DNA of 64,000 bases from Bacteroidia bacterium (GTDB lineage Bacteria > Bacteroidota > Bacteroidia > UKL13-3), in NCBI GenBank assembly GCA_021740845.1, contig JAIOYZ010000005.1, positions 3,693 through 67,692 on the forward strand, written 5' to 3'. Position 1 is the stretch's first letter; each line of letters begins with the position of its first letter. Below, piece by piece: positions 1,467 through 64,000 of the stretch. The notes under the pieces are model-generated. The model saw nothing but the letters and a program-made list of their open reading frames with translations, ran no database searches and was not told the origin of the DNA. Position numbers and translations under genes: made by a program.

Positions 1467-1471
1467 TAGGT

Positions 1472-1669
1472 TTGAACCAAATGAAACTAATTTTGAAATA
1501 TAAATTTATCCTAATTGGAAGCCTTTTAGGAATTGTAGCAGGGTTTTCATATTACTATTTTATTGGATGCGCTAGCGGCACTTGTGCCATTACCTCTAGT
1601 CCAGTAAATAGTAGTTTATATGGAGCATTTATGGGAGGATTGTTGGGGGATTCATTTAGGAAAGGGTGA
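1472..1669 (+). CDS. small membrane protein with CASGTC cysteine pair, 65 aa
   Basis: Starts 5 bp after the MBL-rhodanese stop. One TM helix followed by GCASGTCAIT. Sits in a sulfur-metabolism gene neighbourhood. Confidence 0.4.
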   Translation: MNQMKLILKYKFILIGSLLGIVAGFSYYYFIGCASGTCAITSSPVNSSLYGAFMGGLLGDSFRKG

Positions 1670-1775
1670 GAATGGCTGTTGGCTATTAGCTTCTGGCATC
1701 TGGCTACTGGCTACTGGCTTTTAGCTATTTCTTTGAGTGAAGTTGTCTACTTATTTATTGGGATAAAAAAGGACA

Positions 1776-1930
1776 GTAAGTAAGTATGTAAGTATGTAAG
1801 TATGTAAGTAAGTAAGTATGTAAGTAAGTATGTAAGTAAGTATGTAAGTAAGTATGTAAGTAAGTATGTAAGTAAGTATGTAAGTAAGTAAGTAAGTAAG
1901 TAAGTAAGTAAGTAAGTAAAGAAAGAAAGA
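1776..1930. repeat. microsatellite (GTAAGTAT)n then (GTAA)n then (GAAA)3
   Basis: Direct reading shows about 10 GTAAGTAT units, then about 9 GTAA units, then GAAA x3. It is preceded at 1678-1735 by an imperfect GGCTACT-like repeat. It lies in the intergenic region upstream of the thioredoxin gene. Confidence 0.9.
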
Positions 1931-1968
1931 GTAGTAGGATTAATAAAAAAAAATAAAAGTAAAAATAT

Positions 1969-2268
1969 ATGTCAGCATTTAACGATTTAATTAACGGTAC
2001 TACCCCGGTTTTGGTAGATTTTACGGCCACTTGGTGTGGACCTTGCAAAATGATGTCGCCCATTTTAGATGAGGTGGCGGGCGAATTGGGTGAAAGTGTA
2101 AAGATTATAAAGGTGGATGTAGATAAAAATCCACAAGCAGCGCAGCATTACCAAGTACAAGGCGTGCCAACATTAATATTATTTAAAGAAGGCAAAACGG
2201 TATGGCGTCAATCTGGAGTTGTACCAAAAGGACAATTAATTTCAAGTATTCAACAATTTAATAAATAA
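1969..2268 (+). CDS. trxA: thioredoxin
   Basis: WCGPCK active-site motif. Length is 99 aa. Confidence 0.9.
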   Translation: MSAFNDLINGTTPVLVDFTATWCGPCKMMSPILDEVAGELGESVKIIKVDVDKNPQAAQHYQVQGVPTLILFKEGKTVWRQSGVVPKGQLISSIQQFNK

Positions 2269-61218: not shown

Positions 61219-61296
61219 AAGTAATTAACCAAATATCAACAAAGTTTTAAATGAATACAAATTTTCTCACTTTTACAAACCTAAGCAAATAAAGTT

Positions 61297-62664
61297 ATGG
61301 CCAGAATATTAATAATAGACGATGAAAAGGCAATTCGTAGTACACTAAGAGAAATTTTGGAGTATGAGGGTTATCAAGTAGATGAAGCAGCTAATGGCGA
61401 AGAAGGCTTAAGCAAAATTGAGAACGAAGAATTTGATGCCGTTTTGTGCGACGTAAAGATGCCGAAGATGGATGGCATGACCGTACTATCAAAGGCAAAA
61501 GAAATTGACGAGGACCTACCATTTGTAATGATTTCTGGTCATGGCAATGTTGAAATGGCGGTAGAGGCTACAAAAAAAGGAGCTTTTGATTTTATAGTTA
61601 AACCACCAGATTTAAATAAGTTACTAATTACTATTCGTAACACAGTTGACCGCAAGGAACTTGTTATTGAAACCAAAGTTTTAAGACGGAAAGCTAGCAA
61701 AACCCGCGATATTATTGGAGAATCTCCAGCGATAAAGAACATTATGGATACCATTGATAAGGTGGCTCCAACAGATGCAAGGGTGTTAATTACCGGAGAT
61801 AATGGAACTGGAAAAGAACTTGTAGCACGCTGGATTTATGAAAAAAGCATGCGTTCTAAAAATCCTTTAATTGAGGTGAACTGTGCGGCAATTCCAACAG
61901 AATTAATAGAAAGTGAATTGTTTGGACATGAAAAAGGTGCTTTTACATCTGCTATCAAACAAAGAATTGGAAAATTTGAACAAGCCCACCAAGGAACTAT
62001 CTTTTTAGATGAAGTTGGCGACATGAGTTTATCTGCTCAAGCCAAGGTTTTAAGGGCATTGCAAGAAAATAAAATTACACGTGTAGGTGGCGACAAAGAC
62101 ATAGAGGTTGATGTACGTGTAATTGCGGCAACCAATAAAAATTTATTGAAAGAAATTGAAAAAGGTACTTTTAGAATGGACTTATACCACCGTTTAAGTG
62201 TAATTCTAATTCATGTTCCTTCTCTACATGATAGACGAGATGACATCCCATTGTTGGCAGAAAAATTTGTTAAAGAAATTTGTGAGGATAGCGGATTATC
62301 TAGGAAAAGTTTCTTACCTCAAGCATTGGAAGAGTTTAAGAAATTGAACTTTAGTGGAAATATTCGTGAGTTAAGAAATATAGTTGAGCGACTAATTATT
62401 TTGGGTCAACCTAGAATAACGGTTGAGGATATTCAAAAATTTGCCAGTCCAATAAATGCCCGCGATGAAGAAAAGTCTATTTACGAACGATTTTCTACTT
62501 TACAAGATTTTAAAGAATATGTAGAACGTATTTTTATTGAAGAAAAACTAAAGAAAAACGGATGGAATGTAGCTAAAACAGCTGCAGAAATTGATATTCA
62601 AAGAAGCCATTTATATAATAAAATAGAAAAATACAGTCTTAAAAGAGGTGAAGCCAACGATTAA
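61297..62664 (+). CDS. sigma-54-dependent response regulator (NtrC family)
   Basis: Receiver domain (DD..D...K), AAA+ sigma-54 interaction domain with GESG Walker A and the GAFTGA-like loop, C-terminal HTH. Confidence 0.85.
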   Translation: MARILIIDDEKAIRSTLREILEYEGYQVDEAANGEEGLSKIENEEFDAVLCDVKMPKMDGMTVLSKAKEIDEDLPFVMISGHGNVEMAVEATKKGAFDFIVKPPDLNKLLITIRNTVDRKELVIETKVLRRKASKTRDIIGESPAIKNIMDTIDKVAPTDARVLITGDNGTGKELVARWIYEKSMRSKNPLIEVNCAAIPTELIESELFGHEKGAFTSAIKQRIGKFEQAHQGTIFLDEVGDMSLSAQAKVLRALQENKITRVGGDKDIEVDVRVIAATNKNLLKEIEKGTFRMDLYHRLSVILIHVPSLHDRRDDIPLLAEKFVKEICEDSGLSRKSFLPQALEEFKKLNFSGNIRELRNIVERLIILGQPRITVEDIQKFASPINARDEEKSIYERFSTLQDFKEYVERIFIEEKLKKNGWNVAKTAAEIDIQRSHLYNKIEKYSLKRGEAND

Positions 62665-63458
62665 ATTTCGTTGGTTTCTCCTTCAAATTGAAGCATTATT
62701 TTTGAGCTTGGTTTTAAGCCTAGCAACCTTGCGCCTTTGCCTTTATTCATAGCTATTAGAAGGTTTCCATTTTCATTAAACAGCATCAATTCATCTCCTG
62801 ATTTTCCATCATGAAAATGTTGCGAAATTTTAGAAATTGAATGCTTGCCCCAATAGTATAAAATAAAAGGTCGGTTTGAACCAACTTTAAGGAATAAATC
62901 TTTGGTGATATTTGTGATTGCATTCTGATAACCATCAACATACATAACAGTACCTTCTATGCTATTTTCGGTATATATAGCTGAAATACTTTGTTTTTCG
63001 GTAAGAATGGAACTAGGTTCGGCCAAACCTTTTAAATCTCCTTTTTTAAGGAAATTGGCAATAAGTGGTATGAAAATGTTTTTTTCTACAAAAAGGTCGT
63101 TTTCAAGTTCGGGAGCTATTAGTAATTTATAAACCTTTGTTGGTGTTGAATCAAAAAGAAGGGAAAAAATTCCATTATCTGCTCCAAGAAAATAATGACC
63201 ATTCATCTCAACCAAAAGCAATTGTTTATGTAATGCCAAGCTGCAATCCACACAAATTAGATGAAAGGTACCAACAGGAAAATCAAGGTAAACAGATTTT
63301 AAAATAAAAGCCGACATACTTAAATCAAAGTCGGGAATTTGATGAGAGATGCTAATTACTTTGGTTTCTGGCAATAAAGTAGCGGCTTTACCCAACATTG
63401 AAGCTGTGTAAATGCTATCCGATCCATAATCAGAAATAAGAGTAATAACAGAGTTCAA
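62661..63458 (-). CDS. SAM hydroxide adenosyltransferase (DUF62) family protein
   Basis: N-terminal LISDYGSDSIY pattern. Confidence 0.55.
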   Translation of the reverse strand: MNSVITLISDYGSDSIYTASMLGKAATLLPETKVISISHQIPDFDLSMSAFILKSVYLDFPVGTFHLICVDCSLALHKQLLLVEMNGHYFLGADNGIFSLLFDSTPTKVYKLLIAPELENDLFVEKNIFIPLIANFLKKGDLKGLAEPSSILTEKQSISAIYTENSIEGTVMYVDGYQNAITNITKDLFLKVGSNRPFILYYWGKHSISKISQHFHDGKSGDELMLFNENGNLLIAMNKGKGARLLGLKPSSKIMLQFEGETNEI

Positions 63459-63504
63459 ATTCTTTTACTATTTTCGTGCAAAGTAACAGCAAGTACAGCA
63501 AAAT

Positions 63505-64000
63505 TTGAATACCAAAGAAATCTTAATTGAACATCTTGAATCTGCGGAGGCTTTCGGGGTTCATCATCAAAACCTTAAAACTTTTGAAACTCACTTTCCT
63601 CAACTAAAAATTGTTGCGAGAGGAAACCAAGTAAATCTAAGGGGTAGTGAATTTGATATTTCACTTTTTGAAGAAAAATTTGAGCAAATGCTGAAGCTTA
63701 TAAGAAGGTTTGGAGCAATTACTGAGCTACAACTAGAAGGTATTTTTAGCGGCGATTCGGTTCAAACCGAAAAAACTGCAGCAGCTGAAAATATGGGACC
63801 ACAAGGAGATATTATTTTGTATGGAAACCATGCCAAAGTAATTAGAGCTAAAACTCCAAACCAAAGGAAGATGGTTTCATTGATGCAAAACAATGATATT
63901 CTTTTTGCTATTGGCCCAGCAGGAACAGGAAAAACTTATACTGCCGTAGCACTTGCAGTTAAGGCATTAAAAAATAAAGAAATTAAGCGAATCATTTTAG
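63505..64000 (+). CDS. phoH: PhoH-like ATPase, 5' part (runs off the window end)
   Basis: Walker A GPAGTGKTY near the window end. Frame is open back to a TTG at 63505 with no in-frame ATG, so the start is uncertain. Confidence 0.55.
   Translation, partial: MNTKEILIEHLESAEAFGVHHQNLKTFETHFPQLKIVARGNQVNLRGSEFDISLFEEKFEQMLKLIRRFGAITELQLEGIFSGDSVQTEKTAAAENMGPQGDIILYGNHAKVIRAKTPNQRKMVSLMQNNDILFAIGPAGTGKTYTAVALAVKALKNKEIKRIIL

Follow-up and report, generated by a model that had tools for sequence, protein, structure and literature searches.

A lineage-specific, highly iterated and nearly palindromic 16-bp DNA word in a 64-kb stretch of a Bacteroidia genome

The DNA analyzed here, referred to throughout as the window, is the whole of a 64-kb stretch of contig JAIOYZ010000005.1 (assembly GCA_021740845.1, Bacteroidia bacterium), with a GC content of 0.34 and, according to database gene calls, a coding share of ~87% and a non-coding share of 13%. 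Dispersed through this window at about one copy per 2.5 kb is a lineage-specific, highly iterated DNA word of 16 bp, with the degenerate consensus TTYGGTTYRAACCRAA, the dominant form TTCGGTTTGAACCAAA and the core GGTTYRAACC. Further comparisons were made on fragments of relatives and on metagenome contigs. Judged by the GldL, GldM, GldN, PorP/SprF and Por_Secre_tail proteins that it encodes, the window belongs to the Bacteroidota. The closest LeuS among GTDB representatives (83% identity) comes from a metagenome-assembled genome (MAG) that bears the label 'Bacteroidetes bacterium' and an isolate name suggestive of a sample from fresh water, and the labels on close LepA relatives read 'Sphingobacteriales/Bacteroidia bacterium'. 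The same DNA as in the window is present in contigs of the MAGs GCA_021740965.1 and GCA_021739685.1 and in the Logan assemblies of SRR12088350/51.

Exact matches to the core number 25 in the 64 kb, against 0.47 +/- 0.61 (maximum 2) in 100 dinucleotide-preserving shuffles, an over-representation of ~53x overall, so that the strong enrichment claimed in a first-pass annotation of this sequence is upheld. The full consensus TTYGGTTYRAACCRAA with up to two mismatches has 33 copies (0.87 expected). Cores with at most one mismatch number 55 (7.4 expected), and since the one-mismatch forms alone are few (~30 versus 6.9 expected), the distribution of copies is sharply peaked on the perfect core. In an unbiased k-mer scan the word is the top over-represented 10-mer of the window, one tandem repeat aside, and sub-word counts peak at CGGTTTGAACC (14 observed, 0.03 expected). 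Most of the core starts given by the first-pass annotation are correct; two need shifting by 10 (from 35198 to 35188 and from 49842 to 49832), and three copies were missed (24167, 45883 and 53840). Of the near-variants that it reported, GTTTTGAACC is found at 9347 as stated while its other copy starts at 3100, not 3101, and the split form ggttca-N14-tgaacc is present at 8970-8995. The copies are listed below by their 16-mer coordinates, with 'island' standing for the region at 3000-9520 that is described further on and ORF for open reading frame; the last nine lines are variants.

1466-1481: ATAGGTTTGAACCAAA; shares its first base with the end of the rhodanese/MBL stop codon (gene at 93-1466)
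5343-5358: TTCGGTTTGAACCGAG; convergent intergenic spacer, member of the island sub-family (…GAGACAAGTT)
9428-9443: TTTGGTTCAAACCAAA; 68 nt downstream of the Crp/Fnr-like gene
9488-9503: TTTGGTTCAAACCGAA; exact consensus in reverse orientation, 8 nt past the Crp/Fnr-like stop codon
12227-12242: TTCGGTTTGAACCAAG; fills the 20-bp gap between two co-directional genes, inside an operon
21359-21374: genic, in leuS, peptide ESVQTI; not in the L001 ortholog, no indel
21688-21703: genic, in the AI-2E transporter gene, peptide FRFKPS
24021-24036: genic, in a 1160-aa ORF, peptide RLVQTG
24164-24179: genic, in the 1160-aa ORF, peptide LGSNLY; not in the earlier list
27696-27711: genic, in a 1238-aa histidine-kinase gene, central CG, peptide SWFEPF
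29788-29803: across the called TTG start of the kinase gene; core 10/10 in L228 beside a spacer 58% identical
30872-30887: intergenic, exact consensus in reverse orientation; core conserved in L228/L230, flanks diverged
35185-35200: intergenic, exact consensus TTCGGTTTGAACCAAA
36925-36940: intergenic, GTTGGTTTGAACCAAT, between tRNA-Val and the next gene
45880-45895: genic, in a 589-aa ORF, peptide IGLNLE; not in the earlier list
47448-47463: exact consensus in reverse orientation; called N-terminus of the 589-aa ORF, divergent region
49829-49844: genic, in an M23 peptidase gene, peptide DSVQTG; relatives colinear without the copy
50585-50600: genic, at the M23 peptidase N-terminus, central CG, peptide GLVRTY
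52268-52283: intergenic, central TA; divergent spacer adjoining the NA37/YejK-like gene, with a 3-mismatch proto-site in relatives
53837-53852: genic, in a pseudouridine synthase gene, peptide KRFEPK; not in the earlier list; relatives colinear without the copy
57046-57061: intergenic, 82 nt upstream of lepA
58932-58947: exact consensus immediately past the lepA TAA, where the DUF1569 gene insertion absent from relatives has its left junction
60298-60313: perfect palindrome TTTGGTTCGAACCAAA; convergent spacer not present in relatives
62870-62885: genic, in a SAM_HAT gene, peptide VGSNRP; relatives colinear without the copy
63756-63771: TTCGGTTCAAACCGAA, with perfectly palindromic flanks; phoH N-terminal region, peptide DSVQTE
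3097-3112: island variant TTCGTTTTGAACCGAG, one core mismatch; at a homology breakpoint
8100-8115: island variant TTCGTTTTGAACTGAG; left flank shared with 9344, right flank with 5343
9344-9359: island variant TTCGTTTTGAACCGAG; left flank 95-100% identical to that of 8100, homology stopping at the motif
24428-24443: near-variant TGCTGTTTGAACCAAA, right half intact
26025-26040: near-variant TTGGGCTTGAACCAAA
26136-26151: near-variant TTCGTTTCAAACCAAA
31437-31452: near-variant TTTGCCTTGAACCAAA
34501-34516: near-variant TTTGGTTCAAACAGAT
55849-55864: near-variant TTTGGTTCAAAACGAA

Beyond the 16 bp, the flanks differ from copy to copy (the four island variants at 3097, 5343, 8100 and 9344, which lie in local repeats, excepted), which makes this a dispersed short word and not the copies of one larger repeat. 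A larger repeat or a miniature inverted-repeat element is ruled out by the same unrelated flanks, larger repeats being local to 3-9.5 kb. The half-site is likewise ruled out as the unit, since TTCGGTTT and GAACCAAA outside full sites occur at chance level.

As had been estimated at first pass, about half of the cores are intergenic (12), with another 12 in genes and one over a called start codon. The corresponding densities are ~1.5/kb between genes and ~0.2/kb within them, both far over chance, and the best 16-mer matches are the intergenic ones. Several intergenic copies start 0-70 nt past a stop codon, both convergent spacers longer than 20 bp hold a copy (5343 and 60298), and the distance to the downstream start codon ranges from 2 to >500 nt, a spread that argues against promoter- or operator-like positioning. 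Genic copies occur in all three codon phases and encode different peptides (e.g., SVQT, RFEP/WFEP/RFKP, GSNL/GLNL), and synonymous-codon shuffles that keep the proteins yield 1.5 +/- 0.9 genic cores (maximum 5) against the 11 observed. It is thus the DNA word, not a peptide, that is enriched, just as the first-pass annotation had held. A peptide motif is ruled out by the three phases and the differing peptides, and a compositional artefact by the dinucleotide shuffles, the Markov expectations and the synonymous-codon shuffles.

No strand or gene-orientation bias, a check proposed earlier, was detected in the window: the TG:CA orientation on the + strand is 11:10, and the same across the gene-strand switch near 52 kb, and the orientation relative to local transcription is 9:9. 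Polar chromosomal words (e.g., Chi, KOPS) would show a strand or replication-orientation skew, which is not what the 11:10 ratio gives. At -1.6 kcal/mol, the fold of the commonest form is matched by that of shuffles (z = -0.24), perfect-dyad copies reach ~-6 kcal/mol, and single copies span -1.6 to -5.9 kcal/mol. The window copies are not followed by a sense-strand U-tract, and comparison with Rfam gave no match for them even at E <= 1. For single copies, a hairpin, an intrinsic terminator or a known RNA family is thereby ruled out, in agreement with the earlier view that the element is no terminator. Its random orientation to transcription and the poor folding of its commonest form indicate that the word acts as double-stranded DNA.

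Though its degenerate consensus is a dyad, the word is not the perfect 16-bp palindrome that had been described. The centres of the 25 cores are TG/CA in 21 cases, CG in three and TA in one, and when copies are oriented to the TG centre, C prevails at position 3 and A at position 14, which gives the asymmetric dominant form TTCGGTTTGAACCAAA. This class outnumbers its mirror class (TTTGGTTTGAACCGAA) by 10 to 2 in the window and by 9 to 2 among non-ascertained copies from metagenome contigs. Both data sets show an anticorrelation between positions 3 and 8 within half-sites (Fisher p ~0.006 for each), and T2 is less strictly kept than A15 (34/50 versus 48/50). Such asymmetry is not predicted by a homodimer that reads independent half-sites, and its reproducibility weakens the earlier picture of a palindrome bound by a dimeric protein. 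Nor is it predicted by a hairpin, because the dominant form would hold a C·A mismatch.

Comparison with relatives demonstrates both conservation and turnover. In L228/L230 (92.5% nucleotide identity), 6/7 cores are exact and 69/70 core positions are kept (binomial p = 0.028, from 7 sites only), including cores beside spacers that are only 58% and 77% identical. In L001 (71% identity), 0/7 window cores are found at orthologous places, while two other cores with proper flanks are present, one of which is common to L228 and mutated in the window. That sites turn over at 71% identity though cores are conserved at 92.5% points to a density-type rather than a locus-specific function. The syntenic lepA region of five relatives (LepA 92-96% and LeuS 83% identical) contains 11 cores with proper flanks in ~98 kb (~0.11/kb, with 0.3-0.7 expected), and the word is thus enriched ~15-40x in the syntenic DNA of the clade and 4-5x further in the window species; the density in the window species and L228 is 0.45-0.64/kb. 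Two more distant relatives have 0 cores in 45 kb of the syntenic lepA region, and 78 other Bacteroidota leuS loci contain essentially no copies. Relatives align colinearly with the window at genic sites (at least six copies), showing no indels but several substitutions, which fall in poorly conserved residues; some intergenic copies sit in spacers not present in relatives. By these alignments, copies arise by substitution, not by insertion or transposition.

Two sites in this comparison deserve separate mention. Relative to four relatives (L236/L237, L243, L233, L245), a DUF1569 gene (58961-59410) is inserted between lepA and folD, the region concerned being 58932-59422. A site in an M36 peptidase gene, past the end of the window, is kept as the motif or as a one-mismatch form in four species (L243:20881-20896, L245:19986-20001) and reads TTTGGTTTGACCCAAG in the window species (L081). 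It encodes W-F-E-P, with motif positions 8 and 14 as third codon positions, and because the conserved WFEP peptide can explain its conservation, the site was not used as evidence.

The word is also dispersed well beyond the window. Scanning metagenome contigs for the exact 16-mer returned >120 loci; those with GC >0.40 contain no additional cores in 282 kb and are therefore chance hits, and those with GC 0.30-0.40 contain 33 additional cores in 231 kb. Sample Ga0172380 contributes 23 non-overlapping contigs with 50 cores in 58.6 kb, none of them overlapping the window, and a word this dense in 23 unrelated contigs indicates genome-wide dispersal. The Ga0172380 copies have a ~50% non-ORF share, occupy all codon phases and show no sense/antisense bias (sense-strand ratio 14:11); tblastx of these contigs against the window clade gave no informative overlap for taxonomic linking. 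Inverted 16-mer pairs in Ga0172380 fold well (L193:1170-1225, a hairpin of -29.9 kcal/mol followed by U8; L162:939-990, -23.5 kcal/mol), and the L193 pair is predicted to be a terminator built from two copies. Competence genes, named at first pass as possible companions of the word, are represented in this high-density metagenome organism by a ComEC gene (L203:347-2401, with DUF4131 and Competence domains) that has a consensus copy inside it (2107-2122); none was found within the 64-kb window. Viral contigs gave 22 single-copy exact-16-mer matches among 2.9 million, which was taken as about background, and an association with phages was set aside.

The island at 3000-9520 looks accessory, with a PIN_3 and DUF6364 pair, a Zn_ribbon_2 gene and two ORFs without Pfam matches (309 and 234 aa) for which NCBIfam and PADLOC returned nothing usable. 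It is composed of mosaic repeated modules, and the island variant TTCGKTTTGAACYGAGACA stands at 3097, 5343, 8100 and 9344, exactly at breakpoints of the mosaic homology: the left flanks of the copies at 8100 and 9344 have at least 60 bp in common, the right flanks of those at 5343 and 8100 ~110 bp, and the left flanks of those at 3097 and 5343 27 bp. The arrangement of these modules hints that recombination joints may form at the word. Among 242 loci fetched, the extended variant TTCGKTTTGAACYGAGACA occurs only in the window species. Two different genes are each preceded by a copy of a 92-nt repeat (6777-6868 and 7818-7909). A Crp/Fnr-like gene (9512-10093) has a weak cNMP_binding match, and the copies at 9428 and 9488 lie downstream of it, not upstream; their cores (9431 and 9491) are 60 bp apart, as noted at first pass, and the neighbouring gene is a lead at the level of coincidence.

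The gliding and type IX secretion block at 37336-45764 (two adjacent GldN paralogs, GldM, GldL, an FGE-sulfatase-domain gene, PorP/SprF, HEM4 and DUF4271) is without a motif core for ~9 kb, which makes it one of the window's two longest stretches free of the motif. An AGTA tandem array at 1775-1919 (reaching ~1751-1950) with ~36 copies, including GTATGTAA variants, lies in the spacer that follows the rhodanese/MBL gene, and a 102-aa ORF that overlaps the array (1755-2063) is probably spurious. At ~52230-52363 the GC skew changes sign and gene orientation passes from mostly - to mostly +, as at a replication origin; no DnaA-box cluster or canonical parS/ori features were found in the 64-kb window. 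The one-mismatch 'cores' at 14600, 15461 and 37156 are the T-arms of tRNA-Gly, tRNA-Lys and tRNA-Val, and the motif core resembles a T-arm one base shorter.

The substitution origin of the copies where constraint is low, combined with preservation of the core, calls for sequence-specific DNA-binding machinery. Since the properties of the word match those of uptake sequences and of highly iterated palindrome 1 (HIP1), the mechanism rated most likely, albeit tentatively and with a probability of about 0.4, is that the word is a 'self' tag comparable to the uptake signal sequence (USS), the DNA uptake sequence (DUS) and HIP1, recognised by a protein with sequence specificity, whose role would probably lie in DNA uptake or recombination. 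Both the protein reader and the process are what we infer from these properties. The resemblance to uptake sequences raised by the first-pass annotation extends to density, intergenic bias, substitution origin, clade sharing and the terminators formed by paired copies. Point substitutions create copies in spacers and variable protein segments, where constraint is low, and the 10-bp core is preserved once formed. Under a self-tag mechanism, sequence-specific DNA-binding machinery would give motif-bearing DNA an advantage in transmission or fitness, the word being recognised as a 'self' tag during uptake and/or recombination in natural transformation, and biased uptake together with homologous recombination would drive its accumulation across the genome. 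A known sequence-specific receptor is the minor pilin ComP in Neisseria. Speaking for such a tag are the position of the word at cassette or mosaic junctions, the ComEC gene in the high-density organism and the precedent of HIP1 for a role in transformation.

Several considerations weigh against a self tag. The DNA examined is 64 kb of one genome plus fragments. Known USS and DUS are not dyad-symmetric, ComEC is near-universal and hence weak evidence, and to our knowledge sequence-specific uptake has not been described in the Bacteroidota. The density differs 4-5 fold between species whose LepA proteins are 92-96% identical, which a long-standing uptake bias does not obviously predict, and the asymmetry of the word is left unexplained by an uptake tag. 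Additionally, the island is rich in copies, though uptake sequences are usually scarce in recently acquired DNA (PMC2817400).

A different reader is envisaged if the copies are arrayed binding sites through which an abundant dimeric DNA-binding or nucleoid-associated protein structures the chromosome, their density being selected for organisation and not for uptake. The 7-2-7 dyad, with YR steps at 3/4, 8/9 and 13/14 that are 5 bp apart, is typical of bent sites for helix-turn-helix dimers, and DNA-level, orientation-independent action with cores conserved while sites turn over would suit such a protein; however, the half-sites are non-independent and the dominant form is asymmetric. Known architectural palindromes number in the tens, not the ~1000 per genome extrapolated here. 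The window does contain a gene for an NA37 (YejK/NdpA-like) nucleoid-associated protein (52363-53412), with the motif copy at 52268-52283 in its divergent upstream spacer, but the NA37 gene is also found in low-density relatives, density varies 4-5 fold among close relatives, and the window lacks canonical parS or ori features. Although HIP1 has been argued to act in nucleoid structure (PMC5861425), an array of this kind is a somewhat unlikely account of the word.

Alternatively, the word could be a HIP-type palindrome tied to an orphan methyltransferase and/or to biased short-patch repair acting on an internal sub-sequence (e.g., GTTYRAAC, TTCGAA) and regenerating the word. Its over-representation falls inside the 15-300x range of HIP1, with genic and intergenic copies that are conserved above background as in HIP1 (PMC5861425), GAAC/GTTC is contained in 24/25 cores, and HIPs are described as co-varying with methyltransferases that recognise internal sequences (PMC4390886). 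However, no methyltransferase gene lies in the 64-kb window, the sixteen constrained positions are far longer than any methyltransferase site, and the centre is mostly TG/CA and not CG, the opposite of a T:G-to-C:G repair outcome. As an account of its own this is unlikely; it is compatible with the uptake model, and the two are not mutually exclusive.

If the copies were operators of a global transcription factor, the obvious candidate would be a Crp/Fnr-family protein. The inner 14 bp, TYGGT-N4-ACCRA, resembles the 5-4-5 FNR box TTGAT-N4-ATCAA, several copies lie in divergent promoter regions (52268 and 57046), and the Crp/Fnr-like gene at 9512-10093 has two copies close by, though these are downstream of the gene and not upstream. 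An operator does not account for genic copies at ~25-30x over chance, for copies in both promoterless convergent spacers longer than 20 bp (5343 and 60298), or for start-codon distances of 2 to >500 nt; the central 4 bp are conserved, unlike the N4 of an FNR box, and the sites are not positionally conserved among relatives. A Crp/Fnr regulon is therefore very unlikely.

Mobile or recombination processes (e.g., a miniature element, a REP-like element, a serine-recombinase-type crossover site or a short templated conversion tract) could leave remnants or targets of this size, and they would be in keeping with the burst in one lineage, with the near-identical intergenic 16-mers (5 of them exact), with copies in spacers or beside a gene insertion that relatives lack (58932 and 60298), with the variant copies exactly at three homology breakpoints in the 3-9.5 kb island, and with a non-palindromic central dinucleotide reminiscent of serine-recombinase crossover sites. 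Against them, no flank is conserved beyond 16 bp and isolated half-sites show no enrichment; at least six genic copies differ from their colinear counterparts by substitutions, with no indels; the 64-kb window contains no transposase, RAYT or recombinase gene; the dominant form, with its C·A mismatch if folded (-1.6 kcal/mol), is not a hairpin substrate; viral contigs give only background single matches; and a genome with twenty-five active recombinase sites in 64 kb would be scrambled by them. The mobile-element target suggested at first pass is thus improbable for most copies, and the whole class of processes is highly doubtful. A self-propagating word without transposition, in which templated short-patch conversion would write a single asymmetric master 16-mer (TTCGGTTTGAACCAAA) into genomic sites that nearly match it, is a long shot. 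The donor or enzyme would be an oligonucleotide, a reverse-transcribed donor or a nick-and-repair enzyme, and such conversion would jointly explain the intergenic near-identity, the asymmetry, the indel-free multi-base genic substitutions and the recent burst in one species.

Finally, an RNA-level element (a small terminator or attenuator hairpin, or a T-loop-like motif, GGUUCRAACC resembling the tRNA T arm) is barely credible, for although many copies lie 0-70 nt after stop codons, the palindrome gives the same transcript form from either strand, tRNA T-arms are 1-mismatch matches and paired copies form terminator-like hairpins, a single copy reaches only -1.6 to -5.9 kcal/mol with the commonest form no better than shuffles, there is no sense-strand U-tract and no Rfam match, sense strands show no preference for the orientation that pairs better (9:9 in the window, 14:11 in the metagenome organism), and half of the copies are inside ORFs.

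Only a handful of lineages are known to have hyper-abundant words with a demonstrated role (USS in Pasteurellaceae, DUS in Neisseriaceae, HIP1 in cyanobacteria), and for HIP1 the tie to transformation is only now emerging. Searches of the literature for the 10-mers of this word gave nothing relevant, and no description of a HIP- or USS-like element or uptake sequence in the Bacteroidota (Bacteroidetes) was found. The word would extend the phenomenon to another phylum, in uncultured freshwater Bacteroidota. Close relatives at 0, ~0.1 and ~0.5 copies/kb provide a natural comparative series that can be used to find genes co-varying with density, and these graded densities make the reading machinery discoverable by comparative genomics, with the asymmetry and the position at cassette junctions as concrete clues. 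Should the tag govern DNA uptake or recombination, it would allow a way of transforming these organisms to be predicted.

Set beside known systems, the word shares features with several families of short repeated DNA. Repetitive extragenic palindromic (REP) sequences and bacterial interspersed mosaic elements (BIMEs), mobilised with RAYT proteins, are likewise short, palindromic, intergenic-enriched, often found after stop codons and prone to lineage-specific bursts. However, REPs lie outside genes, measure 20-40 nt, fold into stable hairpins and are moved as whole units, whereas the word is half genic, made by substitution and endowed with a weak or mismatched hairpin; with half of its copies genic, a fold of -1.6 kcal/mol and no RAYT gene seen in the window, it is not assigned to the REP/RAYT family. 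The FNR/CRP operator (TTGAT-N4-ATCAA) has the same 5-4-5 geometry as the inner 14 bp TYGGT-TYRA-ACCRA, with one base different per half-site. In the word, unlike the operator, the central 4 bp and the outer flanks are constrained, no known regulon comes near the copy number and genic share, and the position relative to promoters is not fixed; copies in convergent spacers, operons and ORFs at a density of 0.4/kb place it outside a Crp/Fnr-type regulon. Architectural and segregation palindromes (parS of 16 bp, the Noc NBS of 14 bp, the SlmA SBS, matS of 13 bp) occur in tens of copies and are domain-confined. They resemble the word as 13-16 bp dyads that serve dimeric proteins on double-stranded DNA, also inside genes, and differ from it in number (~1000 per genome by extrapolation for the word) and in the parS/ori signature, no canonical form of which is seen in the window.

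The closest likenesses are to HIP1, the alternate HIPs, USS and DUS. HIP1 (GCGATCGC) is 15-300x over-represented, occurs in and between ORFs and is conserved above background, with no evidence of its acting as a peptide, RNA or regulatory motif (PMC5861425), and recent work ties it to the efficiency of transformation and proposes that it signals uptake (bioRxiv 10.1101/2024.09.10.611283; 10.64898/2026.06.24.733823). The word is similarly hyper-abundant (~50x), genic and intergenic, conserved above background and, here, without evidence of a peptide, RNA or gene-regulatory role. It differs from HIP1 in its unrelated sequence, in being twice as long, in being AT-rich and not GC-rich, in its asymmetric dominant form and in its phylum. 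Genomes with USS (Pasteurellaceae, core AAGTGCGGT) or DUS (Neisseriaceae, ATGCCGTCTGAA) are ~2 Mb in size, and the density of these sequences is of the same order as the 0.4-0.9/kb of the word. They number 1,471 and 1,892 copies per genome, with 34.5-65% of copies in ORFs (PMC2817400), a range that includes the approximately one half of the word's copies in ORFs, and in both cases both orientations are used. Further points in common are genic copies at poorly conserved residues in several frames, accumulation by lineage, copies that arise by substitution or recombination and not by transposition, and the presence of the same word in related species (PMC2817400; PMC2397512). Paired USS or DUS in inverted orientation form terminators (PMC1852404), and the inverted pairs of the Ga0172380 organism are also terminator-like. 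In contrast to USS and DUS, the word is near-palindromic, 16 bp long and AT-rich, varies strongly in density between close relatives, and comes from a phylum that is not known for sequence-specific uptake. By this comparison, what is new is a word from another phylum, twice the length of HIP1, AT-rich and nearly but not exactly palindromic, that appears to behave like USS, DUS and HIP1.

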